Shown here one piece after another: positions 1 to 52,214 of a DNA stretch of 53,582 nt. This DNA is from a virus (Duplodnaviria > Heunggongvirae > Uroviricota > Caudoviricetes). The stretch is taken from IMG/VR virus record IMGVR_UViG_2923318301_000003; one strand, given 5' to 3'. Each line of letters begins with the position of its first letter. Within the stretch, counting starts at the first letter, position 1. The position numbers and the translations under genes are program-made. The notes under the pieces were generated by a model, which was not told the DNA's origin, ran no database searches, and saw only the letters and a list, made by a program, of their open reading frames with translations.

Positions 1-1209
1 CTACTTTGTAGCGTTCACCAGCAAAGAAATACATGAATTATGATTAGCGTTTATATAGTCCGCATACCACTGCATCATCTCCCTACGTCCTTCCAAATAC
101 AACGCATGGTTATACGTCCCACGAATCGCATTTTTATCAACGTGAGCCAGCTGGGTTTCAATCCACGCTGTATTGAAACCTTCCTCATGCAAAATCGTAC
201 TCATCGTGTGACGGAAACCATGCCCCGTTACCCTCCCCGTATATCCAATCCGCTTAAAAACCTGATTAATACTCGCTTCACTCATCGTCTTGCGGGGATC
301 ATTACGTCCCGGGAACACCAGTGGATATTGCCCTGACATCACTTTGAGTTGCTGTACGATTTCCAGCGCTTGGGTAGAGAGGGGGACAAGGTGAGGCCGT
401 TTCATCTTCATACGCTCGGCAGGTATCTCCCACACCGCTTTTTCAAGATCAAACTCACTCCAGAAAGCACCTCGGAGTTCGCCAGTGCGAACTCCCGTGA
501 GGATCAGCAGACGTGCCGCAAGAACAACTAACGGGCTTCCTGTGTAGCCTGCGAGAGCTTTAAAAAAGTCTGGTAACTCCTCAACAGTAAGGAAGGGATA
601 ATGCTTCGATTCATGCCCTGACATCGCGCTGGTAAGATCCGCTGCAGGATTGTATTCCGCACGACCGGTTACGATGGCGTAACGAAAGACTTCGCTGCAA
701 CGCTGGCGAACCTTCTTGGCCTTCTCTGTCGCGCCACGGCTTTCAATTCGACGCAGCACATTAAGCAGAACCAGCGGTTTGATTTCATTCACCGGTTGTT
801 GGCCAATATAGGGAAAAATATCTTTATTAAAGGCTTCGATAATGTCCGAGGCATAACCTTCTGACCATCGGCTCACCTTCGTTCCATGCCATTCAAGTGC
901 CACAGCCTGAAACGTATTATTTAGCTGCACATCTCGAACCAGCTTTTCTTCTTTCTTGGCAAGCGATGGATCGATACCTTCGGCAAGCTTTTTCTTGGCG
1001 TCGTCACGCAGTGCCCTCGCTTGTGCAAGGGACACTGCCGGATAGACACCAAAGGCCATACGCTTCTCTTTTCCATTGAAGCGATATTTCATCCGCCAGT
1101 ATCTGGAACCAGAGGGAACAACCTCAAGATACAAACCAGCACCATCTGCCAGCTTATAGGCTTTCTCTCTGGGTTTAGCTGCGTCTACCTGTCGCGCATT
1201 AAGTTTCAT
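1..1209 (-). CDS. P4-type tyrosine integrase of a second thrW-associated island that continues left of the window
   Basis: 415-aa ORF (likely start at MKLNARQ). C-terminal HGFRHT...LAH...Y motifs typical of tyrosine recombinases, with a P4/CP4-like N-terminus. Start faces the tRNA-Thr 3' repeat at 1371..1418; stop codon is at 1..3. Confidence 0.85.
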   Translation of the reverse strand: MKLNARQVDAAKPREKAYKLADGAGLYLEVVPSGSRYWRMKYRFNGKEKRMAFGVYPAVSLAQARALRDDAKKKLAEGIDPSLAKKEEKLVRDVQLNNTFQAVALEWHGTKVSRWSEGYASDIIEAFNKDIFPYIGQQPVNEIKPLVLLNVLRRIESRGATEKAKKVRQRCSEVFRYAIVTGRAEYNPAADLTSAMSGHESKHYPFLTVEELPDFFKALAGYTGSPLVVLAARLLILTGVRTGELRGAFWSEFDLEKAVWEIPAERMKMKRPHLVPLSTQALEIVQQLKVMSGQYPLVFPGRNDPRKTMSEASINQVFKRIGYTGRVTGHGFRHTMSTILHEEGFNTAWIETQLAHVDKNAIRGTYNHALYLEGRREMMQWYADYINANHNSCISLLVNATK

Positions 1210-1370
1210 TGGGGGCATCTCCCTAGACCGAACACAAAATGCCCCCACTTATGCCCCCAACTGCGACTTGATTTCGGTTGAGTCTAGTTGATAACAGGAG
1301 ATAAGATACGGGCCAGAAACCGCAGTATACGAGCTTTTAGTTGATTTCGGTAGACTTGGGAAGAGTTTGA

Positions 1371-1418
1371 AATGGTGCCGATAATAGGAGTCGAACCTAC
1401 GACCTTCGCATTACGAAT
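1371..1418. repeat. 48-bp direct repeat identical to the 3' end of tRNA-Thr (distal att core copy)
   Basis: aatggtgccgataataggagtcgaacctacgaccttcgcattacgaat is identical to 52137..52184; the two copies diverge immediately afterwards. Confidence 0.85.
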
Positions 1419-2165
1419 TATAAGAATCCGCTTCTAATTCAAAGTATTACCCCATCAACACTGTGCTCACACGTCCCACCACATCAAAACATGTAAAGCC
1501 TTGCAAGCCATTGTGAGGCCTTATGTGTCTCAGTTTTGTCCCACCTTGTATTATGACTTGCATAGCCAATGAAGATAAACGTGACGACAAACAGCGCAGC
1601 AGTCTTCTTTTCTTTCACACTTTCCCCAATCAGCATACATACTTTCTACCATAACTGTAGTGAATGTCTGTTATGAGCGAGCAAAAGAGATTCAATTACC
1701 GGGGAATTACTCCGACATAAGCTCTCCCAGAAACACCGGAACAGCGATTCGCATATTCTCTTCTATACTTTCAGTCTGACCGGCTGGAGATTTCATAGCA
1801 AGAAAATGGATGCGCCAAGACCTATGCGGGAAAGAGGCTGAGGAAATAATTGCCGATAGCACTGTGCCCGACGAAAAGTTAATCTGGCACGCAATGACGC
1901 GCGTCCTTGGGGCATCAGGAATCAGAGAGCCAACTTAACAACCCATTACATATTATTTAACCGGACTGTTACATGTACAAAGTTCAATGATTAGTGATTC
2001 TGTGACGCCACATACAACCTAAGCCCCTGATATAAAACCAGTCTATGCAACACCTAAAAATCATATATGATAGGGTGATAAGTCAACGCGCAGTATAAAA
2101 ATTAAGCTAAAAAATGCTTTCAGCATAGTGAATCTATTTCACACTACATAATTAAGGATGAAAAA

Positions 2166-3011
2166 ATGACTGCACCAGTAATTAGTTTTATCAATATGAA
2201 AGGTGGGGTTGGTAAAACAACTTTATGCGTTGGGATTGCTGAGTTTTTAGCCAACCATATGGGGCGCAAGGTTCTAGTTATCGATATTGATCCTCAATTT
2301 AATGCCACTCAGTCCTTAATGGGGCATTATGATCGAGTAGAAGAATATATGACTGCCCTTCGCCCTAATAATCAAACCATTCGAAAGATTTTTGAGCTTC
2401 CAAATTCATTAATGGAAGATGAAAAGAAAGTGACACCAGAACAGGTCATTACTAAAGTTTCAGACAATCTTGATATTATCTTAGGTGATATAAACATTAT
2501 CTTTGATACTAACCAAGAGGGTATTAGAATAAAAATGTTGCGTAAATTCATCACCGAAAATGACTTAAAAGAAAGTTACGACTATATCTTTATCGATAGC
2601 CCCCCAACAATCTCATTATTTACAGATACCGCACTCCTTGCTTCTGATTATTATCTTACTCCGGTTAAAATTGATCACTACTCGGTGCTTGGAGCAAGCA
2701 GTTTAAATAGCGTTATAAGAAATATGCGCACACATCATGAGAAAGAAATCAAGCAAGTCGGTTACATTTATACAAACACTGATGCTGAAATGACCAATAA
2801 AACAAGGGAAATTAAAGAACAATTCGAAAACCATACTCAATTTACAAATTTTTATTTCTTTGAAAATCAATTAACCTACGTGCGTGATTTAATGGTAGGT
2901 TATCAAGGAAATATTCCTTCTTGTTATTCAAAGTCACGCCAAGATATAGAAAAGATCTGTAACGAATTTATTAACAGAGTGGCTCACTTGGAAGGTAACA
3001 CAAATGAATAA
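2166..3011 (+). CDS. ParA/MinD-family deviant Walker-A ATPase, first gene of a three-gene operon
   Basis: N-terminal MKGGVGKTT (KGGxGKT deviant Walker A); 281 aa; AT-rich; 8-nt overlap with the next gene. Confidence 0.8.
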   Translation: MTAPVISFINMKGGVGKTTLCVGIAEFLANHMGRKVLVIDIDPQFNATQSLMGHYDRVEEYMTALRPNNQTIRKIFELPNSLMEDEKKVTPEQVITKVSDNLDIILGDINIIFDTNQEGIRIKMLRKFITENDLKESYDYIFIDSPPTISLFTDTALLASDYYLTPVKIDHYSVLGASSLNSVIRNMRTHHEKEIKQVGYIYTNTDAEMTNKTREIKEQFENHTQFTNFYFFENQLTYVRDLMVGYQGNIPSCYSKSRQDIEKICNEFINRVAHLEGNTNE

Positions 3012-3402
3012 ACAATTAATTAAAGCGCTCAATAAAGCTAATAATATGCCCATGACCAAAGAAAACTTCTTAGGCTTGGTAATTATGTTGATTCTTTCAA
3101 AAGAGGTTTTTAGATCAAATTTTGATGTTAGTAAATTTATTAACAAAACCTTCAAAATATCTTTTTTGAATTATGCTGTACGGTCAAGAACTTTGATGTG
3201 CGCTAAAATTTGCAGACATATTAATGAATTAAGTGAGAATGACATAAAGATGGCTTATACGCATTTCTTAAACAACATTAACACATTAGACATTATTTTT
3301 AATGATGCAAATAAAACAAGCCAAAAATCCACATCTAAAAGCAAGCATGCTATAAGGAATTTAAATATTTGGATTAATGCAAATAAAAAGGAAGAAGAAT
3401 AA
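3004..3402 (+). CDS. Hypothetical protein, operon partner of the ParA-like ATPase
   Basis: 132-aa ORF overlapping the upstream stop; its stop overlaps the next start (ATGA at 3402). No recognisable motif. Confidence 0.6.
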   Translation: MNKQLIKALNKANNMPMTKENFLGLVIMLILSKEVFRSNFDVSKFINKTFKISFLNYAVRSRTLMCAKICRHINELSENDIKMAYTHFLNNINTLDIIFNDANKTSQKSTSKSKHAIRNLNIWINANKKEEE

Positions 3403-4067
3403 TGCTCACGCAGGATCCCTTCAACATTGGAAGAGATGTAAATTATTTTAGAGCGGAGGTGCAAAAGCACCTCAGAACCACTGATGAAATAAACAAATCA
3501 GTATCAATATTTAGGCAAATAAGTCTTTGTAATACAATTTTAAGTCACAATCCTAATCTAAATCACTCTTCTTATATAAAAGGTTTTATATATGATACCT
3601 TAAACTCCTTAATTGCCATTATAAAAAAAAGAGAACGGTATCTCCAACTGAACTTCCGCTCAATGGTGGAGCATGTGGCCAGAATAAGCCTCAATAAGAA
3701 CTACAATGGTGGGGATTTTGACCAAACTGTACGTCGTAGAGACTTTGACTTCTTAAAAGCCCAACAAGTCGATGAAGGCTGGTCTTATTTACATAATGTC
3801 TATATCAACGCCTGTTATTATGTTCACTCCTCCCCCCAAGCGAACCTAAATGTTACATCAACATTTATATCACTTATGGAGGGAGATTGTAATTCAACAC
3901 AGCATAAAATGGTGAAAAAACTTCATGAGGTAGTATCGGCGCTGATGAGAATCATTATAAAGTATTATCATCAGCATATCTCAAACATTTTCTTTAGAAA
4001 CAAAAAGGATTTAGAGAAAATAATGGGAAAAAGCCTTTATTCATATTATACCAGCTTAGACAATTAA
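3402..4067 (+). CDS. Hypothetical protein, third gene of the ParA-like operon
   Basis: 221-aa ORF translationally coupled to the upstream gene; contains R-x4/5-H spacings (RAEVQKH, RSMVEH), which are not diagnostic. Confidence 0.6.
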   Translation: MLTQDPFNIGRDVNYFRAEVQKHLRTTDEINKSVSIFRQISLCNTILSHNPNLNHSSYIKGFIYDTLNSLIAIIKKRERYLQLNFRSMVEHVARISLNKNYNGGDFDQTVRRRDFDFLKAQQVDEGWSYLHNVYINACYYVHSSPQANLNVTSTFISLMEGDCNSTQHKMVKKLHEVVSALMRIIIKYYHQHISNIFFRNKKDLEKIMGKSLYSYYTSLDN

Positions 4068-4862
4068 TTCTCTCATATTCATTGCGTAGAGCATAAATAT
4101 CTATCTAACCACCTAAAATGCCAGAAAATCTAGTTGTATACCGGTGCGAAAATATCTCGCGTTTCATCTGCCACTGCTGCTGAATGCCCTGCCCAGCGAA
4201 ACAGAGTGTTTCCTTCCCGTCTTTTGCATTGAGGTGCTCCAGCACGCTCATTAACTTTTCGCTCCCAGGACCCAGCGCGTTATCGTCGAATAGGTTAGGG
4301 CATGCTCTGACTGAAGAAGTCCCCCAGCATTACCCCGGCTTTCTGATATCGGTGTCCGTCTTTCCATATTGCATCCAGACTCCCCGTTGCTACTGCAATG
4401 ATATCCCGACTGTCCTGTGTCGGGATGAGCAGCTTCACCGACGCGCTGTTACAGTAGTACGACTCGTTCAACGCAAAGGGTATCGTGTAAAACCGATGAT
4501 GACACTGCCGGCAATCAGCACTGACGTCAGCAAACGTGAGAAAGAACAGATAAGCCGAACGATTTAGGAAATGTTTGAAGAGACTGATATGTGGATGGTT
4601 TCAGTTTAAACGCCTTGAACCGTCATATTACCTAAGTACAATCCGCTGTGACTGGCAATCATTCAATACTTGCACTATCAAAAGTGCATCAGCCAACCGC
4701 AGCACGTCTTGCATACGACCTGTCTGCGGTTTCAATCACCTCTCACCACCAGTCCCATCAATAATAATTAAACAGCGCCTAAACAAAATAAATAACAACA
4801 AGTCAACAACCTCGACAGGATGCCGATGGGATGTAAGCGACTCATCAGAACCGTATTGATAT

Positions 4863-6434
4863 TTACTGAGAGCTCAGATCAACTTTCCAGGGCAACAGAT
4901 CGCGTACCCGGTTTGCCGGCCAGTCCTGGATATGTTCAATGACGTAACGCAGCCACTTTTCTGGCTCCACATTGTTCAGACGGCATGTGCCGATCAGCGA
5001 GTACAACACCGCCGCATGTTCACCACCGCTGTCGGAACCCGCGAACATCCAGTTTTTCCGGCCTACGGCCACTCCCCGTAAGGCGTTCTCTGCGATGTTG
5101 TTGTCGATTTCCACCCAGCCATTACTGCAGTACACGTTCAGTGCATCCCACTGTTTCAGCAGGTATGCGAACGCTTTTGCCGTATCTGAGTGACGCGACA
5201 GTGTTTTCATCTGTTGCTGTATCCAGTCATACAGTGACTGCATCAGTGGCGCGGCTCTGGCTTTTCTTGCCGCCAGACGCTGTTCTGCTGAACAGCCCCG
5301 GACCTCTGCCTCGATGGCATACAGTTCACCGATACGCTGCAGGGCTTCCGTGGTGATGTAGGTGGGCGCTCTTGCATGCACATCGTGGATTTTTCTCCGG
5401 GCATGAGCCATACACGCGGCTTCCGTTATTCTGCCGGATTCGTATAACGCCCGGTAACCACCGTAAGCATCGGCCTGAAGCACACCGCTGTAACCGGCCA
5501 GGTAATTTTGTGGATGGATACCTTTCCGGTCCGGACTGTACGCGAACCAGACCGCCGGGGGCATCTGTGAACCGGCGTTACGGTCATCACGGACGTAGAC
5601 CCACAGCCGGGCTGTCCGGGTTTTACCGCTGCCCGGCTCCTGGACCGGGACGGGGATATCATCAGCATGGACTTTACCGGGCATCAGCACATACTGGCGC
5701 AGGACGTCATACAGCGGCTCCAGCAGTTCAGCAACAGCACCTGTCCAGCGCCCCAGTGTGGCACGGCTCAGCTCCACTCCCTGACGACGGTATATTTCTG
5801 ACTGGCGGTATAACGGCAGATGGTCTGCATATTTCCCGGTGACAACATGGGCCAGAAGCCCCGCTCCGGCATAACTGCGTGCAATGGGTTTTGAAGGTAC
5901 TGGTGCCTGCACGATATGGTCGCACCGGCAACAGGCCTGTTTCGGACGTTGTGTTTCGATAACCTTAAAGGCGCTGCTGATAAGCTCCAGTTGCTCTGAC
6001 ACATCACATCCCAGAGAACTGAGTTCACCACCACAGGCAGGACAGCATTCCTCTTCCGGCCGGATAACCCGGGTTTCACGGGGAAGTGAGGCCGGTAACG
6101 GTTTACGGGCTGAAGACTGGCGCAGGGCGGATGGCAGTACCGGGTCATATTGCTCACCCAGCGTTTCCGCCATTTCTTCCTGAAGTGCGCTGATTCGCTC
6201 CTGTGCTTCCTGTATCTGCCGTTCGGTTTTTGCACGAAGTTTTTCTGAGCTTTTACCGAACTGCATACGTTGCAGTTTCGCAACCAGCGCCTTCAGCCGG
6301 TTGATTTCGGAAGCATAAGCCGCCACCCGCTGTGAGAGCAGGCGGTTGTATTCAGCCATCTGGCGGATGGTGTCCTGTTGCGTCTGCAACAGTGCCCGCA
6401 GGCGGGCGTTCTCATGAGCAAGTGAGGTGTCCAT
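4863..6434 (-). CDS. IS66-family transposase TnpC
   Basis: 523-aa ORF with N-terminal coiled-coil/leucine-zipper, a Cys-rich zinc-finger-like segment (CPACGG...CCRCD) and a DDE-type core; typical IS66 TnpC layout. Confidence 0.85.
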
Positions 6435-6453
6435 ATCCTCACTTTACAACGGG

Positions 6454-6801
6454 TTATATGCGGATTCCAGCGCGTTCCGTTCGTTTCGGGTGCTTCCAGT
6501 TGATACCTTCAAGAAGCATGGATAACTGAGCCGGAGTAAGGTGCACCTTGCCGTCACGGGTGACTGGCCAGACGAAGCGGCCCCGCTCCAGGCGTTTGGT
6601 GAAGAGGCACAGTCCGTCACTGTCAGCCCACAACACTTTTATCTGGTCACCCCGGCGTCCGCGGAAGATGAACAGGTGTCCGGAGAACGGGTCATCCTTC
6701 AGGACGTTCTGAACTTTTGATGCCAGGCCGTTAAAGCCATTTCGCATATCGGTGATACCTGCAACCAGCCAGATACGCGAACCTGCAGGGAGAGATATCA
6801 T
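6454..6801 (-). CDS. IS66-family TnpB (Orf2) accessory protein
   Basis: 115-aa ORF between orfA and tnpC with the conserved IS66 Orf2 character (WLVAGITDMRNGFNGLA...). Confidence 0.8.
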   Translation of the reverse strand: MISLPAGSRIWLVAGITDMRNGFNGLASKVQNVLKDDPFSGHLFIFRGRRGDQIKVLWADSDGLCLFTKRLERGRFVWPVTRDGKVHLTPAQLSMLLEGINWKHPKRTERAGIRI

Positions 6802-7478
6802 CAGTGGCTGCTCCCTTTTATTTCGCGGATAAGTGTCTGTAATAACGCCGGCGTCAGTTTACCTTTAAGCCTGAGAGTTCCGGCCGGCAGAACCAGCTCA
6901 CAACACAGACTGTCGGACGGTGTATTTATCTGCTCTGGTTCCTGTGCGGGGGCCGGGATTTTATTATCCGGCTCCGGCGTTAACGTCACGGGAAGCAGTG
7001 CCGGCATATTTTTTCCGGAAGGCAGCAGGCCACCTTTCCGGTATTGATGGCGCCAGTTGAAGAGCAGGTTATCGTTGATTCCGTTTTCCCGGGCGATCTG
7101 CGCCACACAGGCTCCGGGCTGCAGTGACTGCTCCACTAAGGCGATTTTAAACTCATAAGGGAAGTTGGGCCGCCGGGGACGTTTTTTTACCACGGGGGCT
7201 TCGGATATAACGGTGCTTTCAGGACGTACGACTGGTACCGTGGAAAATTGTCCGTAAAGGCAGGCATCAAGTTCCTGCTCCGACATGCCTGCGGGCAAAG
7301 GCCACGAAAGGCCAGCTCTCCGAAAGCGCACGAACATACTACAAACTGTTGATTTTGGTACACCCAGGCGACGCCCGGCCACAACCCGGGGTAAATGTTC
7401 TTCAAAGTGAAGACGTAAAGCTTCAGTGATCCAGGTCCGGTGTTTCATACGATAGTGTCCATTAAAAATGATGGACAT
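6801..7478 (-). CDS. IS66-family OrfA (Orf1)
   Basis: 225-aa ORF whose stop overlaps the tnpB start. HTH-like N-terminus. True start may be the internal Met (MKHRTW). Confidence 0.7.
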   Translation of the reverse strand: MSIIFNGHYRMKHRTWITEALRLHFEEHLPRVVAGRRLGVPKSTVCSMFVRFRRAGLSWPLPAGMSEQELDACLYGQFSTVPVVRPESTVISEAPVVKKRPRRPNFPYEFKIALVEQSLQPGACVAQIARENGINDNLLFNWRHQYRKGGLLPSGKNMPALLPVTLTPEPDNKIPAPAQEPEQINTPSDSLCCELVLPAGTLRLKGKLTPALLQTLIREIKGSSH

Positions 7479-7644
7479 TATTTTTGTAGAGCCGGAGGAA
7501 ACAGACCAGACGGTTTAAATGAGCCGGTTACGATGGGATGATGAAGAGATAAGAAAGAATAACTAGTAAAGCCCTAAAACGTCAGCGTTCAGACGCGTTT
7601 TTTACTTAACCGGTAACAAATACGTTGTATCATAGCAACATAAA

Positions 7645-9594
7645 ATGATTGTTCTAAATCAGATTAACTCCTCACTTTTGTACAATGTCGCTTACAGGTA
7701 TACCATGAAATCCGAGACGCTAACTGTCCAACAACTTTTTCAAGACCGCCGACAATACTGTGTTCCATTCTATCAACGTGCCTATGTATGGACTCAGCGA
7801 AACCAATGGTCAGCTCTACTGGAGGATATCCTAGAGAAAGCACAATCCCGGCTCTCGGGTACAAAACCAACTCCCCATTTCCTTGGTGCAGTGGTACTGG
7901 AACCTCAACCAAAAAAAGGATTATTCGGTGTAGATTCCATACATATTATTGATGGTCAGCAACGATTGACCACTCTTCAATATGTTCTGGCATCCATCCG
8001 ATTAGCATTACGTGCGACAGATCTTTCCAACTTAGAGCCTCTCATTTCGTCTTGCCTGAAAAACTCAAACGAAGACACAATGCGAAATAAAGAAGTAGAG
8101 CGCTTCAAACTGTGGCCAACTTTTCGGGATCAAACTCATTTTATTCAAAGTTTTAATGTTGAAAATATTGACGATATCCGGAATGTATTCTCTGATAGTT
8201 TCACGCAGCATGGTACGTTGCGTAAGCATTTTAATCACCCGCCATCACTAGAAGCATTATGTTTTTTTACTGAAGCCTTTATAAAGTGGATTAAAATAGA
8301 AAATCACTCACCACGAGAAAATGCTGTAGCATTAATTGAGGCTGTCTTGACGGATCTGAAACTAGTAAGCATATTTCTCGAGGCTGAAGATGACGCTCAA
8401 ATAATTTTTGAAACATTAAATGGCAGAGGTGCGGAACTTCATGCCACAGATCTTATTCGCAATTATATTTTTATGTGCGCTGAACATGAAAATATTAATG
8501 CTGTTGAATTATATGAGAATGAGTGGAAGATCTTTGAAGATACGTACTGGTCAGAAAGACAACGTCGTGGTCGTATTAATAAACCACGCATGGAGTGGCT
8601 AGTGCATGCAACATTGCAATCAGAAAGGCAACGTGAAATCGATCTGTCTCGTCTTTACAATGAGTATCGTGATTATGTAAGTAAGGACTTGCCTTCACAA
8701 CGAGCAGATCTGCAAGTAAAGCGCCTCAAACAATATGCATCACAATATAAAGAATTGGTTGGTGGTTTTGGCACAACCCCCATCTCACACTTTGGACATC
8801 GCATCGCAGCCTATGATGTGACGACACTTTATCCGCTTGCTTTGTTCATTTCGATAGCTAACATCGCCGATGATGAGAAAGCAGCCATGTATAATGATCT
8901 TGTCTCCTACGTAGTACGAAGAGCCGTATGTGGCCTGACGCCAAAGAATTACAACAATGTATTTATGAATGTATTGCGGCACTTGTCTAAAACAGAAATT
9001 TCCAGTGTTGAGTTACGTAATATCCTCAATAGCTTAAATGGCGAAGCCTCACGTTGGCCTGGGGACTCAGAATTTCTCAACGCTTGCATCAATGCTCCAC
9101 TTTATCCTGGCAGGCTCGACGCACCGAAAATGCGCTCAATGTTAACGGAACTTGAAAGAGAACTTTGTCGCCAAGTGAAGACAGAGAAGCCTGATGTTCC
9201 AAATCTTTCTAACCTCGATATCGATCATCTTATGCCTCAAAGTTGGTATTCCTGTTGGCCTCTCGAAAATGGTCATATGGTGACAAATTCAGATGCTACG
9301 GTATTGAACCAAATTGTTCTGTCTGGAACCGATCTTACCCCAGAACAGCTACTGGTAAGGAAACGGCAACAAGCGATAGCTACGTTGGGAAATCTAACTT
9401 TGCTTAACCTTAGCGTAAACCGTTCTGTTCAGAATGCTGTATTTCTGAAAAAACGTGATGCTCTCATCGTCCACACCAATCTACGACTGAACATTCCACT
9501 TATAGTTAAGGATAAATGGGATGAGGATGAAATCCTGGAGCGGGGTAAAAAGTTGGGGGAAATTGCATTGAAAGTATGGCCAAAACACGATTAA
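7645..9594 (+). CDS. Fused DUF262/DUF1524 protein, GmrSD-family type IV (modification-dependent) restriction endonuclease-like
   Basis: N-terminal ParB-like/DUF262 hallmark (IIDGQQRLTTLQ) and C-terminal His-Me finger/DUF1524-like motif (DIDHLMPQSW); 649 aa. Alternative start at 7705. Confidence 0.75.
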   Translation: MIVLNQINSSLLYNVAYRYTMKSETLTVQQLFQDRRQYCVPFYQRAYVWTQRNQWSALLEDILEKAQSRLSGTKPTPHFLGAVVLEPQPKKGLFGVDSIHIIDGQQRLTTLQYVLASIRLALRATDLSNLEPLISSCLKNSNEDTMRNKEVERFKLWPTFRDQTHFIQSFNVENIDDIRNVFSDSFTQHGTLRKHFNHPPSLEALCFFTEAFIKWIKIENHSPRENAVALIEAVLTDLKLVSIFLEAEDDAQIIFETLNGRGAELHATDLIRNYIFMCAEHENINAVELYENEWKIFEDTYWSERQRRGRINKPRMEWLVHATLQSERQREIDLSRLYNEYRDYVSKDLPSQRADLQVKRLKQYASQYKELVGGFGTTPISHFGHRIAAYDVTTLYPLALFISIANIADDEKAAMYNDLVSYVVRRAVCGLTPKNYNNVFMNVLRHLSKTEISSVELRNILNSLNGEASRWPGDSEFLNACINAPLYPGRLDAPKMRSMLTELERELCRQVKTEKPDVPNLSNLDIDHLMPQSWYSCWPLENGHMVTNSDATVLNQIVLSGTDLTPEQLLVRKRQQAIATLGNLTLLNLSVNRSVQNAVFLKKRDALIVHTNLRLNIPLIVKDKWDEDEILERGKKLGEIALKVWPKHD

Positions 9595-9616
9595 TGCAAT
9601 TAATAAAATGATTATA

Positions 9617-9640
9617 GCGGCCTTACATTAGTAAGGCCGC
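9617..9640. terminator. GC-rich hairpin immediately downstream of the GmrSD-like gene
   Basis: gcggcctta-cattag-taaggccgc, a 9-bp perfect stem; no strong U-tract on the + strand, so terminator function is tentative. Confidence 0.4.
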
Positions 9641-9989
9641 TACTCACTATTAAATCCTTTAATTTGCAACAAGAACAGCAGTGTCAGCCCTAGGTTTCGG
9701 ACTTTGTACCGCTTATCTTGTCTTCAAAAATCAGCTCGCATCCTGCACAGTTCAGCGCATTACGAATCTGTAGCACCAATCTTAACTATCTGTTTTAGCA
9801 AGCATTAACCGCATTCACTAAGCTATAGTTGATGGCACAAACAGAAAGTTGATGCATGATGTTGTCATGTGTATGTCACAAATGCGGCACAACGATCTTC
9901 AAACATGTAGCCACACATCCACAGAAGAGCACAAAGCCTTGCAATCCAGTGCAACGCTTTGTGTACCATAGTTTTTCCTTATCAACTAC

Positions 9990-10192
9990 CGCAAGTATCG
10001 ATCGATGGAGGCTTGGATGTTAAATTTCATGACTTTGATCACTTGGTGCATCACGAAACTATCGAAGTGCAACTCGCTCATGCCAACGGCGGATCTGTGC
10101 GTGGGATTTACAACCATGCTCAGTATCTAGATAAGCGCAGAGAAATGATGCAGTGGTGGGCTGATTACATCGATGGTCGTGCAGGAGTGTAA
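9990..10192 (+). pseudogene. Remnant of the 3' end of a P4-type integrase gene
   Basis: Translation ...ETIEVQLAHANGGSVRGIYNHAQYLDKRREMMQWWADYIDGRAGV aligns with the C-terminus of the integrase at 1..1209 (...ETQLAHVDKNAIRGTYNHALYLEGRREMMQWYADYI...). No N-terminal or catalytic domains upstream. Confidence 0.55.
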
Positions 10193-11286: not shown

Positions 11287-14200
11287 TTAATTGTAGCCAT
11301 ATGACAGCCAAAGGTCGGCAAGCGTTGACGCCACAAAGCACGGGTCATACATCGTGCTGCCAGCCGCACTGCTGCCGTCAAAATCAAAGAAGCGCTTTGG
11401 TAGTCCCGGTTTCGGCCCGTACTGCGTCTCAAAAATTCCGAACAGCGATTTTGCGGCAATCATTGCTGACGGCCTGGCGGACTGAAACAGCGGCAGTAAC
11501 GCAAACGCGATAGTGTTCGCGCCACCACGTCGGCTTTCAGAGATGCAGTAATCCACCTCACTGAATCCTCCCGCGCTGTTTGACGCTGTCAGGATAAAAT
11601 TCACCAGGTCAAACTTTGGTGTCCGGTTAAGCAGCTTGCAGGCCAGCAGGTAGTTATTAGTGGCGTAAACCATGTACGGCAGGTACATGCTCTTCAGCGT
11701 GGAATCCGACGGGCCATCGAGAATAATGTTTTCCGCTTTCATGAATGTCGCTGAGTTCGTGATGAAGGTCTCCAGCGCATTGAATGCAGCAAGGTACGTC
11801 CCGCCGGTATCCAGCCCCATATAAATCGCCAGCGCCAGCACGCGCATGGCTGTCGCGTTAGAGTTGCTGTTTCCTGAGTTTGTGGCTGTCCCCACCAGAG
11901 CCACGCCACCATAGGTGTTATATGACACCATGACGGCATCCGCGAGGGATTTAATCCCCGCCTTCAGCTCGGTTTGTTTGGCTGTATCTCCGGCCTTCAC
12001 CGCCATTTTGTAGAGCCACTCATAGCACGGAATACTCAGACGCGACTGGAACTGCAACCCCCACCATCCATCAGTGAACATAATACCTGGATTAGTTATG
12101 CCGCCAAATCCCCTCATGTACGATTTAAAATTCGTATACACTGTGTTCAGCGTGCTGATGCCATACTTTTCTAACAGAAAAATCTCTGCCATGTGGCAAT
12201 AGAACTGCGTTTTCACATCGGGTCCGCCACCATAAACAGTAGCGTCAGTGCTTTTCCACCACTCAACGGATCCCCTGACGTGACAGGCGATTTTCTCCAG
12301 CATGTCCAGCCGCAGAACACCTGCATAACTGCAATCACCCATGAACCCTACCGGGCGGTTGTTAGCCTGACTTACCAGCAGTGCATTAACCTCTGAGGTG
12401 GAACTGGTGATGGTGTTGTCGCAGTCAATCCATGTCTCATGTGTCCACGTCCAGTTTTTTGGCACAGGCCAGTTCAGGAATGAATCGTCATTCAGGTCAA
12501 CGAAAAGCCATCCCGCGTCCAGCCGAGTTGTTGTGCCTGTGGGTTGCAGCGCCGTTGCCCGTATCGGGCGCGTTGGCCCATAAGCAGGGCCATCTCGGTG
12601 GATATCCCCATTAGCAAAGACCGTCGTGGCCGTAAATCGCTTGCCGGTGACTGAATCCGTCCAGTACGTCAGTGCTCTAGCGGCATCAAAGGTATATGCA
12701 CCATCATTCAGGTTCAGACGGGAATATGCACCAAATAATACTCCAGCCGGAATATCTTGCGTAGCCGTGGTCATGACCCGGATAAGCACCTTGCCATTTT
12801 TGAAAATCCGGTAGCGTACTGTGGACTGTAACGCCCCTTCAGCCAGTGTTCCGATGGTCCGGTTTCTGACGGTCAGCTCCAGCTCAGTAAAGACCGGCCC
12901 GGTATTAACCATGCGCAGTGATGCACCGAGCACCATCTTGTTACTTGAGGATCCGCCGGAGACAATCCCGGTACAGTAACAGGAATGCGCAAAACTGTGC
13001 GTCTGTCCTGCCGGGTCGGTGATACTGGTCAGCCCCAGGCTGTTCTGGCGCTGGAAAAAATACACATACCCGCCCACGGTAACGGTGAACCCGTCAGCCA
13101 CCCTCACGAGCTGCGGGAAGGACTCTGAGGCCAGGTCCTGGCGGCGACGATTGTATGCCCTGAGTTCGTAATATTTCTGCTGTCCTGATGCCAGGGTATC
13201 GGTGATGAACACAGACCCTGATGCCAGGGAGCCGTCGGCATGGTATCCGGTGTTCGATTTCAGGCGTGGATTGGGATAAACGTTATCCGCAAACTGGCAG
13301 TCAAACACGTTGCCGTCAGCGTCCATCACCTTCAGCGCATCGGAGTCCGGCACCTCGCCGGGACCAAACGACACCTTAAGCTCAACGGGATAGTTTTTAT
13401 ATTCTGCCGACAGCAGATTTTTGACGTCTGCACTTTTGCGCAGATAGTGGCCGACCAGAACCGGACGTGCCACCTTGCGCCGCCAGATGGCATACGTACC
13501 CGCTGGCAATACGGCCAGTCCTGAAGGCGCAAACCCATCACGGCTAACTGTATAGTCACCAGCAGGTAACTGAATCCTGAAAAAATCCTCAAACCCTGTC
13601 TGGGCGATCGTCGTATCATATGCCGCATATGCCGCAAAGAGGCAATCTGGCGCTATTGAGTTGATGTAATCAACAACGGTCGACGCCGTATAACCAGCAG
13701 CCGTAAGTTCAGCGATGGTAACCACGAACTGAATGGCGTTGGCAATTGCTGTCCCGGATATTGACTTCCTTGTGACGGAGTTAACTGAGCCTGCCTGCGC
13801 CGGATAAAACTTGCCTGTAATATCAAGTGCAATATAGTTTGAGCCTGCTACCGGAACACCAAACCCAGCCGGCAGGTCATAGCGAACCCGAACTACACTA
13901 CTGGTCGTTTCCAGAATGGAAACATACTTCAAATCCTGAAATCGGAACAGGCGATACGCTGACCAGAATTTACCATCAGAATACTGGGTGTTCGTCCCAG
14001 GAAAAACCAGTGACGCAACCTCAGAACCCAGCGAAGAAAAAACAAGGCGATAGAAGTTTGTGTTTACATCCGTAGTGGTTGCCAGAGACAAAAATTCTAA
14101 TACTGAATTTTCCGGTAATGGTAGTGCTGTATCATCAAGAGATTTGAATTCAATCAAATCCTGATAATCACCATTTTTTCTTCTAGTTGCTTCTCTTGAT

Positions 14201-15027
14201 ATAGACGAAGATAGGCTGTACTGGGAAATAATTGTTCTCCCGGTTGCAGTCATAACCCCGGATGTATTTACATACTCGTCAGCCAGCGAGGTATTTATAG
14301 CACTGGTTACCCAGCATTTTGAACCAGAAAGAATATTGCCAGCGTCTGCATCAGCCTGTGCCGCCTCCAGCGTGGGAAATTCGCGGATTGTCCCTGTTAT
14401 AGCAGCTGTGCCTGGCTGAGAAGCCTGTAGTATAGCCACGCCATCCTGGTTCTCGTAGGTTTTGAATGCCGCTGTTGCTCCCGGGCCTTCCGCTACACGG
14501 AAAGACTGCCCGCTGGTAGTAGCAGCAAGGCCTGCAATTGTACCGTCCGGATCGCTCGGCGTTTTATAGAACGTGAACTTATTCAGCGCATATTCAGAAG
14601 CATTGCTCGCGAACTCTTCGGCCTGAGAGGCAGAAATAGCAGCCTCTGCCGTGTTCTGTGCCACCGCGGACGCGTTACGCGCCACTTCTTCCACCATCAG
14701 CTCAAAACGGCGCAGTGCCTCCGGACGGGCATCATCCTCCGTCATGGCACCGAGAAAATCATTCAGCGTACCCGGTTGTGAGTCTTCATACACGGTGATG
14801 GTCCCGGCATGCGATGGCGGGAAGCCTTCCACCAACAGAATAACGCTGTACTGACCGTACTCAACGTCCATGCTGTAACGCCCGGCTTCATCCGGATTTT
14901 CTGAGGCCACCGTGTTCACCACCACCGTGGTGCTGTTACGTTTTGCTTTCAGCTGGATTGTGCAGTTCTGTACCGGTTTACCTGCGCCGTCTTTCAGTAC
15001 ACCTGAAATCTTTACTGCCATATTCAC
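11287..15027 (-). CDS. stf: Side tail fibre protein, chimeric (lambda Stf-like N-terminus, divergent distal region)
   Basis: N-terminal ~150 aa (MAVKISGVLKDGAGKPVQNCTIQLKA...) match lambda Stf from memory; the remaining ~1100 aa are not lambda-like; 1246 aa. Confidence 0.8.
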   Translation of the reverse strand: MNMAVKISGVLKDGAGKPVQNCTIQLKAKRNSTTVVVNTVASENPDEAGRYSMDVEYGQYSVILLVEGFPPSHAGTITVYEDSQPGTLNDFLGAMTEDDARPEALRRFELMVEEVARNASAVAQNTAEAAISASQAEEFASNASEYALNKFTFYKTPSDPDGTIAGLAATTSGQSFRVAEGPGATAAFKTYENQDGVAILQASQPGTAAITGTIREFPTLEAAQADADAGNILSGSKCWVTSAINTSLADEYVNTSGVMTATGRTIISQYSLSSSISREATRRKNGDYQDLIEFKSLDDTALPLPENSVLEFLSLATTTDVNTNFYRLVFSSLGSEVASLVFPGTNTQYSDGKFWSAYRLFRFQDLKYVSILETTSSVVRVRYDLPAGFGVPVAGSNYIALDITGKFYPAQAGSVNSVTRKSISGTAIANAIQFVVTIAELTAAGYTASTVVDYINSIAPDCLFAAYAAYDTTIAQTGFEDFFRIQLPAGDYTVSRDGFAPSGLAVLPAGTYAIWRRKVARPVLVGHYLRKSADVKNLLSAEYKNYPVELKVSFGPGEVPDSDALKVMDADGNVFDCQFADNVYPNPRLKSNTGYHADGSLASGSVFITDTLASGQQKYYELRAYNRRRQDLASESFPQLVRVADGFTVTVGGYVYFFQRQNSLGLTSITDPAGQTHSFAHSCYCTGIVSGGSSSNKMVLGASLRMVNTGPVFTELELTVRNRTIGTLAEGALQSTVRYRIFKNGKVLIRVMTTATQDIPAGVLFGAYSRLNLNDGAYTFDAARALTYWTDSVTGKRFTATTVFANGDIHRDGPAYGPTRPIRATALQPTGTTTRLDAGWLFVDLNDDSFLNWPVPKNWTWTHETWIDCDNTITSSTSEVNALLVSQANNRPVGFMGDCSYAGVLRLDMLEKIACHVRGSVEWWKSTDATVYGGGPDVKTQFYCHMAEIFLLEKYGISTLNTVYTNFKSYMRGFGGITNPGIMFTDGWWGLQFQSRLSIPCYEWLYKMAVKAGDTAKQTELKAGIKSLADAVMVSYNTYGGVALVGTATNSGNSNSNATAMRVLALAIYMGLDTGGTYLAAFNALETFITNSATFMKAENIILDGPSDSTLKSMYLPYMVYATNNYLLACKLLNRTPKFDLVNFILTASNSAGGFSEVDYCISESRRGGANTIAFALLPLFQSARPSAMIAAKSLFGIFETQYGPKPGLPKRFFDFDGSSAAGSTMYDPCFVASTLADLWLSYGYN

Positions 15028-36925: not shown

Positions 36926-37357
36926 TTACTCCTTCGAGCTACCAAACTTGTTACCGATTACTCTCATTGCAGCCCCACGAATAGCATCGACACCGATCAG
37001 CCCCACCCCACCACCAATGGCAACAGAAAGCGATTTAGGCCATCCGACATACTCAAGCGCGGATGCAAAGGTCAACGTCAGAGCGCCACATAGCAAAATC
37101 TCGAGCGTTTTTCGCTTCCAGCCACCACCACCGCCAAAATAGGCGATGCGCAAACCAGCCATAACAATCGACATAATCACTGCGCCCAGCGGCGTATCTC
37201 CACGCCACCAGCTCTGAAACAACTCCAGCCAGTCCGGCCAGGTATTTGGGTTATGAGGCATTTCGTCATCTCTCACCTCGCGATATTTGCGGGTGCTGTG
37301 TTGGAAATAAAAAGGCCACGCAACGTGGCCACCAGAATTATTTCCCCACCAGTTCAC
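36926..37357 (-). CDS. Putative holin (not lambda S type)
   Basis: Immediately upstream of the endolysin gene; three hydrophobic helices. Start is probably internal (MPHNPNTW), because the full ORF overlaps the methyltransferase 3' end. Confidence 0.6.
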   Translation of the reverse strand: MNWWGNNSGGHVAWPFYFQHSTRKYREVRDDEMPHNPNTWPDWLELFQSWWRGDTPLGAVIMSIVMAGLRIAYFGGGGGWKRKTLEILLCGALTLTFASALEYVGWPKSLSVAIGGGVGLIGVDAIRGAAMRVIGNKFGSSKE

Positions 37358-38390
37358 TTACCTCTTTCACCGTCTGATTAAACCGCTCTGACTCAAGTTC
37401 AACACCTAACGCCCGACGCCCCAGCGCCATTGCCGCTTTTATTGTGGAACCGGATCCCATAAAGAAATCAGCAACCAGATCGCCTTGTCGACTACTGGCA
37501 CTGATTATTTGCCGGAGCATATCCGCAGGCTTCTCACACGGATGTTTACCCGGGTAGAACTGAACGGGTTTATGCGTCCAGACGTCGGTATAAGGCACGG
37601 AAACTGATACGGAGAAATAGCGCCGGAGAGTTTTAAACTCATCCAGCAATTCAGAATATTTGCGATTCAGTGAATCATAAGATGCCACCAGCTGGTGGTG
37701 TGGTTGTTCCAGTTGTTGTTCCTGAAATTTCTCTGCCGCTATACGGGAAAACAGTGCCTGCAACTTCCGGTAGTCAGCCTCATTCGGCAACTGCCACTGA
37801 CTGGCACCAAACCAGTGGGAAACCATATTTTTCTTACCTGTGGCTTCAGCAATTTGTTTTGCCGTTATACCCAGTTCGGCACGAGCATCCCTGAAATACG
37901 ATATCAGCGGTGCCATTATGTGCTGTTTGAGTTCCCTTTCTTTTGCCGCATAGCCGTCACTTTTGCCGCGATATGGCCCCTGGTAATGTTCAGCAAACAG
38001 AACGCGCTCTGTGGCAGGAAAATATGCGCGCAGACTTTCTTTATTACACCCATTCCAACGTCCGGACGGCTTCGCCCAGATGATATGGTTAAGCACGTTG
38101 AAACGTTCACGCATCATGATCTCAATATCAGATGCCAGGCGATGCCCACAGAACAGGTAAAGGCTTCCGGCTGGTTTCAGTACCCGCCAGAACTGGGCCA
38201 GACAGTGGTCCAGCCACTTCAGGTAATCTTCGTCCCCTTTCCACTGATTGTCCCAGCCGTTGGGCTTCACTTTGAAGTACGGCGGATCGGTAACAATCAG
38301 ATCAATGGAGTTATCAGGCAGGGACTGAATAAAATGCAGGCAATCAGCGTTGATTAAATCAACACTGTTTATTTTTACAGTATTTTTCAT
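37338..38390 (-). CDS. DNA methyltransferase (DPPY-motif N6-adenine/N4-cytosine class), orphan
   Basis: VTDPPYF near the N-terminus and the AdoMet motif DFFMGSGST near the C-terminus; no adjacent restriction gene. Confidence 0.85.
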   Translation of the reverse strand: MKNTVKINSVDLINADCLHFIQSLPDNSIDLIVTDPPYFKVKPNGWDNQWKGDEDYLKWLDHCLAQFWRVLKPAGSLYLFCGHRLASDIEIMMRERFNVLNHIIWAKPSGRWNGCNKESLRAYFPATERVLFAEHYQGPYRGKSDGYAAKERELKQHIMAPLISYFRDARAELGITAKQIAEATGKKNMVSHWFGASQWQLPNEADYRKLQALFSRIAAEKFQEQQLEQPHHQLVASYDSLNRKYSELLDEFKTLRRYFSVSVSVPYTDVWTHKPVQFYPGKHPCEKPADMLRQIISASSRQGDLVADFFMGSGSTIKAAMALGRRALGVELESERFNQTVKEVSELVGK

Positions 38391-39008: not shown

Positions 39009-39935
39009 ATGAAAGTTAGAAGCATAGGATTTACAATAAATAACAATAACAAAAATATTAATACCGTTGACGTAATGAATGCTTTTATCAACGCATCAAA
39101 CAGAGAACACAGTCGCACAGACTATACTCGTAAAATTCTCATTTCGGATGTGAATGATTTCTATTATGGATTAGTTGTCACATTCAGAAACCAAAAAAAG
39201 AACTGTAAGTCGCAATTTGTTGATGGTAAATTCCAGCTTAAAATTGAAGATCTTCAAGGAAGTGACAAACTTGCTAATTTCAACTTTTTCTTAATTAAAA
39301 AATCTAATCTTTCTGGTCTCTATATGTATCACCACGGGTCATGCAGTCTGAACACTCTCTTTTCTCATTTAGAAACAATAAGTAATGAATTTATCAGAAA
39401 TCAAAATAAAGAAGAAATAAAAAAACTTGGTGATAAACCAAAACAAAAAGAAGTAACTGCAATAAATAAAAAATACAAAGAAAGACTGACTTTCAGCCTT
39501 ATGACAAATAAAAACAACATTCAGAGTGTTTTATGTCAATTCAAAGAGATTAAAAGCACAAGCTTTAAATTTAATTATATAGATTTTAAAGGTGGACCAA
39601 TGACTGCGCTTGAACAATTTGTTAACACTACCACAATAGATATGAATTTTAATTCTAGCGACAGAACAAAAGTGCAACAACTATCTCAGAATCTTTCAAA
39701 TATTTATAATTCTATGAGTGGAGTTGCTAAAGCACAGGTTATTGCAGTAAACCATGCAGGAATAGAAAAAACCATTGATTTTATGAACTGCCCTGTTTTT
39801 TTTGAAACATACGATTTCGATATAATTGCCGATAAAGTCAATGGATTGACAAACGATAATTATACAACAAACCCTGTTTTTGATATGATAAAAGAAGAAA
39901 TGCTGAACGGGACGAATAAAAATGCCTTTATATGA
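39009..39935 (+). CDS. Hypothetical soluble protein, first gene of the AT-rich two-gene moron operon
   Basis: 308-aa ORF, strongly AT-rich, opposite strand to the flanking phage genes; 14-nt overlap with the next gene; no recognisable catalytic motif. Confidence 0.75.
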   Translation: MKVRSIGFTINNNNKNINTVDVMNAFINASNREHSRTDYTRKILISDVNDFYYGLVVTFRNQKKNCKSQFVDGKFQLKIEDLQGSDKLANFNFFLIKKSNLSGLYMYHHGSCSLNTLFSHLETISNEFIRNQNKEEIKKLGDKPKQKEVTAINKKYKERLTFSLMTNKNNIQSVLCQFKEIKSTSFKFNYIDFKGGPMTALEQFVNTTTIDMNFNSSDRTKVQQLSQNLSNIYNSMSGVAKAQVIAVNHAGIEKTIDFMNCPVFFETYDFDIIADKVNGLTNDNYTTNPVFDMIKEEMLNGTNKNAFI

Positions 39936-40470
39936 ATGGCTAATAAATAAAAGATTGAGGTATCAGTACCTTACACTGCTTGCATCCTCGATCCTGGCAT
40001 TGCTTGCACTTTACCTATTGTACAGAAACACACCTAAAGTAAGTGTTAACTTTTTTGATTTTTATCATAAAAACTTACGAGGCTATCTCTTCTCCGGTTT
40101 TATTTCCGTGGGCTCATTTTTATTGAGCCTGCATACCTTTGTCATAATAAATTTACGCGATAAGGTTTTTGCAACTCAGGAATATAAGGAAATTTATAGC
40201 ATTGCCACTGGTATACCTATTGACAAAATCAATGATAGTGTACTTTATAAACCTTTAGACAATTTATCCTCATTTATTAATACATCAATATTATGTTCTA
40301 TCACAACAGCAATTGCACAATTCACTATTGGACTTTCAACTAATTTATATGCATGCTTATTTTGCGTATGGCTTGCAATACTAACGGTATTTCTTTTATT
40401 ACATTGCCTCATCATAATCAGACAAAATATTAAAATTTTATTAAAGCAACAGAGAAAAAAAGGGGGGTAA
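39922..40470 (+). CDS. Small integral membrane protein (four predicted TM helices), second gene of the moron operon
   Basis: 182-aa ORF with four hydrophobic stretches of ~19-25 aa (LTLLASSILALLALYLLY; LFSGFISVGSFLLSLHTFVIINL; SILCSITTAIAQFTIGL; LYACLFCVWLAILTVFLLLHCLIII) and a basic C-terminus. Confidence 0.75.
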   Translation: MPLYEWLINKRLRYQYLTLLASSILALLALYLLYRNTPKVSVNFFDFYHKNLRGYLFSGFISVGSFLLSLHTFVIINLRDKVFATQEYKEIYSIATGIPIDKINDSVLYKPLDNLSSFINTSILCSITTAIAQFTIGLSTNLYACLFCVWLAILTVFLLLHCLIIIRQNIKILLKQQRKKGG

Positions 40471-52136: not shown

Positions 52137-52184
52137 AATGGTGCCGATAATAGGAGTCGAACCTACGACCTTCGCATTACGAAT
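52137..52184. repeat. att core within the intact tRNA-Thr (proximal copy of the 48-bp repeat)
   Basis: Identical to 1371..1418. Confidence 0.85.
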
Positions 52185-52214
52185 GCGCTGCTCTACCAAC
52201 TGAGCTATATCGGC
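52139..52214 (-). tRNA. thrW: tRNA-Thr (anticodon CGU)
   Basis: 76-nt cloverleaf on the - strand: GCCGATATAGCTCAGTTGGTAGAGCAGCGCATTCGTAATGCGAAGGTCGTAGGTTCGACTCCTATTATCGGCACCA; adjacent to proA as in E. coli. Confidence 0.9.

Follow-up and report, generated by a model that had tools for sequence, protein, structure and literature searches.

The stretch of DNA analysed here, IMG/VR record IMGVR_UViG_2923318301_000003 (53,582 bp; the whole stretch is referred to below as the window), is a 100% match to Escherichia coli SCEC020023, a human isolate from Sichuan. It carries a lambdoid prophage integrated at a tRNA-Thr gene (thrW, 52142..52214), next to proA, with its genes in the order integrase, early genes, Q antiterminator, lysis genes, terminase, head, tail, J, lom and tail fibre. 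The subject of this study, gmrSD (7705..9594, plus strand; 629 codons plus stop), comes shortly after the tail-fibre genes, at the prophage end most distant from the integrase; its product is RefSeq WP_000834404.1, and it was recognised by the PADLOC model mREase_IV and by alignments to known GmrSD proteins. An initial annotation, made from the sequence alone, had proposed a fused GmrSD-like gene of type IV restriction standing on its own at this place, and had missed that the gene is cargo of a thrW-integrated lambdoid prophage, beside tail-fibre genes.

The gene is real and intact, and it belongs to the GmrSD family as an allele of the E. coli prophage enzymes that defined this family, i.e. 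of a system that is already known. We consider it very probable that this prophage-carried gmrSD allele encodes a single-chain type IV (modification-dependent) restriction endonuclease guarding the lysogen from T-even-type phages. Recent reviews and papers take “prophage-encoded GmrSD” as established, and a full-text literature search returned no paper naming WP_000834404.

The gmrSD gene and its product

The open reading frame (ORF) runs without interruption from 7645 to 9594 on the plus strand and has 649 codons, all of which had initially been counted as protein. The frame itself is as described; the product, however, is a protein of 629 aa that begins at the ATG at 7705 (MKSETL...). This start is adopted because several sources agree on it: the NCBI Prokaryotic Genome Annotation Pipeline (PGAP) begins WP_000834404.1 at 7705, naming it only a “DUF262 domain-containing protein”; residues 21-649 of the longer reading correspond to positions 1-629 of the 629 in the PADLOC mREase_IV model (1439 bits); Eco94GmrSD, likewise of 629 aa, was expressed and active from the equivalent MKSETL start (PMC4437046); strain S3, with an Eco94-like allele, has an in-frame TAA within the 20-codon extension, two codons before MKSETL; and the upstream ATG at 7645 stands only 11 nt past the end (7633) of a promoter-like -10 element. 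The 649-aa product was ruled out on these grounds, and the in-frame extension at 7645..7704 (plus strand) is most likely a non-coding, 5′ untranslated leader. With the true start at 7705, the distance from the upstream insertion sequence (IS) to the gene is therefore 173 bp; the 113 bp given earlier is correct for the ATG at 7645, counted from the IS end at 7531.

Two Pfam domains make up the protein. GmrSD_N (DUF262, a ParB/Srx-fold NTPase; PF03235, E 7.8e-34, profile positions 1-199 of 199) was located at 7726..8472, and GmrSD_C (DUF1524, a His-Me finger nuclease of HNH type; PF07510, E 5.1e-20) at 9055..9561, both on the plus strand and corresponding to residues 28-276 and 471-639 in the 649-aa numbering. 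Both scores are well over the gathering scores, so that the feature is real and a chance match is excluded. The combination of the DGQQR and His-Me finger motifs in one protein, for which the initial annotation had suggested a check by domain hidden Markov models, is thus borne out: DGQQR occupies residues 103-107 (7951..7965) and DHLMP residues 527-531 of the longer reading. In the 629-aa numbering, which is used from here on, the motifs of GmrSD_N are YQRAYVW (23-29), IIDGQQRLTT (81-90) and FETLN (235-239), and those of GmrSD_C are IDHLMPQ (506-512), N522 and WDEDEILERGKKLGEIALKVW (605-625).

Residue-by-residue comparison with Eco94GmrSD placed the catalytic pair D507-H508 at 9223..9228 and the catalytic N522 at 9268..9270, both on the plus strand, and all three residues are kept in the window protein; the catalytic motifs therefore survive proper alignment. 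The alanine mutants D507A, H508A and N522A of Eco94GmrSD lost cleavage (PMC4437046). Furthermore, C517, N528, N535, E271, E273 and E278 are conserved as well. By the motifs with which Machnicka et al. 2015 (PMC4619093) define the family, the protein has the DUF262 N-terminal domain with its motifs and the C-terminal DUF1524 domain, in which (I/L/V)(E/D)H(I/L/V)xPQ is followed by Asn residues; it also has the catalytic residues defined by mutagenesis and is nearly identical to characterised members. Two consensus strings, L(G/A)NLxLLxxxN and NxxFxxKK, are one spacing position off as literal patterns; loss of these GmrD motifs was considered and rejected, since the consensus notation is loose and the corresponding residues, LGNLTLLNLSVN and NAVFLKK, are identical to those of the prototypes CT596 and Eco94. 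It should be added that NCBIfam had no model matching the product, and that a sequence search of solved structures in the PDB returned only a distant DUF262 protein (9jfl, E 1e-07), over the N-terminal domain.

Reference sequences of Eco94GmrSD, CT596 GmrSD (resequenced, single-chain) and UTI89 GmrSD were transcribed from Fig. S1 of He et al. 2015 (PMC4437046); the UTI89 transcription showed 0 differences from the translation of the UTI89 genome. All four proteins have 629 aa, and their alignment contains no gap. Against Eco94GmrSD (ECSTEC94C_1402, WP_000834395), the window protein shows 37 differences (94.1% identity), with the same figures for CT596 GmrSD, and against UTI89 GmrSD (UTI89_C2960, WP_000834402.1) it shows 23 (96.3% identity), which confirms the proposed standalone GmrSD-like gene as a gap-free GmrSD allele. 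In both Eco94 and CT596, D507-H508-N522 and the other conserved residues listed above are the same as in the window protein; 28 of the 37 substitutions that set it apart from these two fall in residues 8-204 of the DUF262 domain, and K280T and K285R come in addition. A protein identical to the window GmrSD is annotated in several other genomes. Identity, motifs and domain architecture are thus established for the gene in the window.

The gmrSD cassette and the ISCro1 insertion

Alignment across genomic contexts delimited a conserved unit that reaches from approx. 350 bp 5′ of the start codon (window position ~4654) to approx. 170 bp past the stop (~9764). Its non-coding leader, which is kept in three unrelated genomic contexts, is present in the window as two halves. 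The distal half (4654..4832, plus strand, 179 bp), defined by the alignment of the three independent contexts, is separated from the gene by an IS; the proximal half (7532..7704, plus strand, 173 bp) opens with the right-hand copy of the target duplication described below. This leader may have a role, e.g. in the regulation of a gene whose over-expression is toxic. The one ORF of appreciable size (94 aa, TTG start) has its start outside the conserved block, and a conserved small ORF was rejected, as indels of 7, 5 and 9 nt between the three contexts leave no frame intact; an Rfam scan of the window found tRNA only and no known RNA in the leader.

A consensus scan placed a sigma-70 promoter-like site (TTAACC-16 nt-TATCAT) at 7606..7633 (plus strand), between the IS and the gene. 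The contexts of UTI89 and S3 have the same -10 element and an almost identical -35 element. The hairpin at 7570..7606, considered as a terminator just 5′ of this site, was rejected as weak (-4.1 kcal/mol). At the other end, 20 nt after the stop codon, a hairpin with a 13-bp stem and about -22.5 kcal/mol (9614..9643, with no strand assigned) is kept in four genomic contexts and is a probable terminator ending the cassette. It lies in the conserved 3′ flank (9595..9764, plus strand), which overlaps the start of an invertase fragment; the contexts diverge past ~9764.

The cassette order of UTI89, i.e. DinI remnant, leader, gmrSD, hairpin, invertase remnant and tail-fibre genes, is shared with the window, whereas the UTI89 copy resides in a baseplate-type (myovirus-like) prophage at ssrA and the window copy in a lambdoid prophage at thrW. 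Strain S3 has the cassette at the thrW locus, where it adjoins a Type ISP restriction-modification (R-M) enzyme, and strain TL-14 has it at thrW with intact tail-fibre accessory genes. In UTI89, S3 and TL-14 alike gmrSD is adjacent to the tail fibre, a prophage position that was reported for the GmrSD of Eco94, UTI89 and APEC O1 (PMC4437046). The Eco94 and CT596 genes are also prophage-borne and, like that of the window, directly follow tail-fibre genes.

The element that divides the leader is ISCro1, a member of the IS66 family with a length of 2,699 bp (4833..7531, minus strand), which was identified by Pfam, its PGAP name, the empty site in strain 1283 and its repeats. It carries tnpA (6801..7478), tnpB (6454..6801) and the transposase gene (4863..6434), all on the minus strand and supported by the Pfam models HTH_Tnp_1, TnpB_IS66 and DDE_Tnp_IS66. 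The terminal inverted repeats are imperfect and begin with GTAA, and an 8-bp target duplication, GATGGGAT, stands on both flanks (4825..4832 and 7532..7539). The three genes, the GTAA inverted repeats and the 8-bp duplication are those of the IS66 family, so the upstream IS66 element of the initial annotation was correctly recognised. The IS-free strain 1283 has the octamer once at the corresponding site. With these details the anatomy of the IS, like the genomic context of gmrSD, is established. Among ~295 genomes with the locus, the ISCro1 junction was present in one, the source strain; the insertion is therefore recent and private to this strain. Apart from this, the gmrSD coding sequence is broken by an IS3-family element in several other E. 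coli genomes, so that the gene has repeatedly been hit by insertion sequences.

Proposed activity and alternative readings

Biochemical and genetic data are at hand for the closest relatives (PMC4437046). Eco94GmrSD cuts DNA with 5-hydroxymethylcytosine (5hmC) or its glucosylated form (glc-5hmC) and is stimulated by ATP, and on its own, when expressed, it restricted T4 delta-ip1 more than 10^6-fold. Both the Eco94 and the CT596 enzymes restrict T4 lacking IPI* about million-fold, and both are inhibited by IPI*, an inhibitor that T4 injects. In Mg2+ buffer, unmodified or Dam/Dcm-methylated DNA is not cut.

For the window allele, the substrate, the stimulation by NTP, the catalytic residues and the sufficiency of a single gene are carried over from the literature on these enzymes of 94-96% identity. 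Following them, the N-terminal DUF262 domain (ParB/Srx fold, DGQQR) would bind and hydrolyse NTP, and the C-terminal DUF1524 His-Me finger (D507-H508...N522) would cleave DNA containing 5hmC or glc-5hmC, leaving uncut the host DNA, either unmodified or Dam/Dcm-methylated. The best available mechanistic model is BrxU of Escherichia fergusonii (pEFER, within a BREX locus), the first member of the GmrSD family to have its structure determined, in which NTP binding splits an interlocked dimer into its monomers and has to be followed by hydrolysis before cleavage can occur (PMC8565348); a similar NTP-driven dimer-monomer cycle may precede cleavage by the window enzyme. The gene is regarded as acting alone because no partner genes are nearby and the neighbours of the cassette change between the three contexts in which it recurs; GmrSD would accordingly need neither a methyltransferase nor partner proteins. 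The predicted unit is a self-contained cassette, consisting of the conserved leader with the promoter-like site, the ORF and the terminator hairpin, which would move between prophages at the tail-fibre end, with ISCro1 sitting in the leader, 173 bp 5′ of the start, and the proximal promoter most likely spared. By analogy with the relatives, we infer that the allele is active and expressed, and the same comparison would suggest the phages and inhibitors (IPI*) to which it responds.

Several observations weigh against this reading. Small differences in sequence count in this family: the UTI89 enzyme is 93% identical to Eco94GmrSD and yet leaves T4 unrestricted, does not respond to IPI* and showed no activity in vitro after purification, although it restricts T2 and T6 in vivo (PMC4437046), and the mosaic window allele may likewise differ in phenotype. 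Position 280 is T in the window protein and K in Eco94, CT596 and UTI89, and the double mutant E278A/K280A of Eco94GmrSD was strongly impaired (PMC4437046). Moreover, ISCro1 splits the ~350-bp leader into its distal 179 bp and proximal 173 bp, and expression could change as a result. The promoter call is a consensus match only, and the region has no more such matches than chance would give; the site remains joined to gmrSD, on the 3′ side of ISCro1.

The substitution at position 280 was considered as an inactivating lesion and rejected. T280 occurs also in the S3 allele, itself 97% identical to Eco94, and K280T is therefore a natural polymorphism in common circulation. Moreover, the gene is under purifying selection, as follows from a dN/dS of 0.15 between the window gmrSD and the UTI89 allele, the only one against which this comparison was made.

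The mosaic structure of the allele bears on its range. Among the window, UTI89 and Eco94 proteins there are 50 variable positions; the window agrees at 27 of them with UTI89 only and at 13 with Eco94 only, 6 are private to the window and 4 differ in all three. These positions cluster in blocks, with 8-153 UTI89-like and both 32, 33, 46 and 330-559 Eco94-like: the N-terminal 150 residues are mostly of the UTI89 type, and the window has the Eco94 residue at 13 of its 23 differences from UTI89 (e.g. 32, 33, 46, 330, 353, 365, 369, 428, 443, 524 and 559). In the central codons 206-320 (8320..8664), dS against UTI89 rises to 0.47, whereas in the flanks it is approx. tenfold lower (0.04-0.07), which points to recombination between alleles, with a tract from a more distant allele. 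It is possible, though rather unlikely in our estimate, that the enzyme is active with a phage range and an inhibitor sensitivity unlike those of either characterised type, as their recombinant with a UTI89-like N-terminal part and Eco94-like residues 330-559. The arrangement in blocks and the raised dS both speak for this, as does the fact that the enzymes of UTI89 and CT596, at 93% identity, differ in T4 restriction and IPI* sensitivity; on the other side, the hybrid could simply behave like one parent. With somewhat greater reserve, we would suggest from the alleles compared that the window gene is a natural recombinant of UTI89-type and CT596/Eco94-type GmrSD whose phage range or inhibitor sensitivity could match neither parent. 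If so, its block structure, including the 6 private changes, K280T among them, would provide a ready-made chimera for the mapping of residues that govern substrate range and escape from IPI*.

It appears improbable that gmrSD is intact yet silenced or mis-regulated in this strain through the cut of its leader by ISCro1, and would thus be a dormant defence gene. What favours silencing is that the IS separates from the gene 179 bp that are conserved in three unrelated contexts, that an insertion private to the source strain has left no time for selection to act, and that gmrSD is sometimes inactivated by IS3 insertions elsewhere. High expression of GmrSD is, furthermore, reportedly lethal (PMC4437046), so that lowered expression could be tolerable or even favoured. 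Against it, the only promoter-like site with conserved -10 and -35 elements (7606..7633) lies untouched on the gene's side of the IS, and IS-free copies, e.g. those of strains 1283 and KMi006, match the coding sequence at 100%.

The active, self-sufficient GmrSD preferred here must finally be set apart from two relatives with the same pair of DUF262 and DUF1524 domains. SspE, the phosphorothioate-sensing nickase of the Ssp system, shares the N-terminal DUF262 domain with DGQQR, and the best PADLOC match to it reached 57 bits over residues 23-140; the SspE models are ~750-790 positions long and only their first ~120 residues match, and sspABCD was not found near gmrSD. BrxU shares the two-domain architecture and the motif logic (DGQQR NTPase, DHxxP...N nuclease) with the window protein; it also cuts 5mC DNA and is part of a BREX operon, whereas no brxA, brxB, brxC, pglX, pglZ or brxL is present in the annotated surroundings of gmrSD, and in the PDB sequence search BrxU fell short of E 0.01. 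The protein is therefore neither SspE nor BrxU, as the defining contexts and full-length matches of both are absent. A role as effector of a multi-gene system, i.e. as an SspE-like phosphorothioate sensor or a BrxU-like BREX component, is effectively refuted by context and identity in spite of the shared domain pair and the weak SspE matches, given that these matches are confined to the first ~100-140 residues against 1439 bits at full length for mREase_IV, that BrxU is only 13% identical to GmrSD (PMC8565348) while the window protein has 94-96% identity to enzymes able to restrict phage on their own, and that the 9 kb flanking gmrSD on each side are free of ssp, dnd, brx and pgl genes, in line with the earlier remark that ssp and brx partners are lacking next to it.

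Neighbouring genes, distribution and significance

The neighbours of gmrSD are IS elements, gene fragments, a ParA-family gene with two orphans, and tail-fibre genes; none of them matched a GmrSD-associated PADLOC model. The initial annotation had placed the gene between the IS66 element and an integrase remnant. The remnant is present (9959..10192, plus strand; 10058..10192 in PGAP, as “integrase, missing N-terminus”) and retains only the C-terminal ~40 residues, with 40 bits against NCBIfam PRK09692 (cut-off 434) over model positions 355-394 of 413; a truncated invertase/recombinase fragment between it and gmrSD (9696..9779, minus strand) had been missed. The gene debris around the cassette (4105..4567 and 9696..9779) thus comprises a frameshifted UmuC C-terminal (DUF4113) fragment, a DinI fragment and this invertase/recombinase fragment, which is consistent with repeated recombination at the gmrSD end of the prophage.

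On the other side of ISCro1, a ParA-family ATPase gene (pieces at 1100..1213 and 2286..3011, plus strand) is split by IS903B at 1245..2213. It is followed by two orphans on the plus strand, 3004..3402 (132 aa, phrog_6264) and 3402..4067 (221 aa, phrog_7540), which had no Pfam or PADLOC match; the GC content here is 32-35%. The ParA gene and the orphans may form an uncharacterised accessory module. The corresponding slot beside gmrSD holds the Type ISP R-M enzyme in S3, and a GIY-YIG protein with two uncharacterised genes in UTI89; it looks like a variable slot for cargo or defence genes.

Two regions of the prophage at a greater distance should also be mentioned. A pair of genes with ~31% GC at 39009..40470 (plus strand), encoding proteins of 308 aa (phrog_2802) and 182 aa (no library match), runs opposite to its neighbours on the two sides, the Q antiterminator and an N6/N4 DNA methyltransferase (37338..38390, minus strand; PADLOC MTase_II, 506 bits), and is probably a moron of unassigned role. 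At 11287..15027 (minus strand) we found an intact tail-fibre ORF of 1,246 aa, with the Prophage tail fibre N-terminal domain at residues 3-136 and the remainder covered only by phrog_20877. PGAP has a 445-nt pseudogene fragment here and leaves ~3.5 kb without annotation, which is probably an annotation error masking a large receptor-binding or depolymerase-like region.

The gmrSD family was detected in 305 of 5,426 complete E. coli genomes (~5.6%), and all copies were chromosomal. They fall into three identity bands: at least 99% (68 genomes, the window allele), 95-99% (154 genomes, including UTI89) and 90-95% (83 genomes, sampled by the Eco94-like S3). A search of deposited phage genomes (50,697 records) found no close homologue, the best having 24% identity; gmrSD is thus known from prophages in bacterial genomes and not from isolated phages.

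Taken by itself, the finding has little importance beyond annotation, where WP_000834404.1 can safely be renamed GmrSD type IV restriction endonuclease on the basis of its 94-96% identity to characterised enzymes. The mosaic of the allele could help to map the determinants of IPI* sensitivity, a matter of specialist interest only. As regards the biology of these prophages, the gmrSD cassette of leader, gene and hairpin moves as a unit between prophage types, beside a variable cargo slot, and for phage therapy and host-range prediction the source strain is expected to resist some T-even phages with glucosyl-hydroxymethylcytosine DNA.

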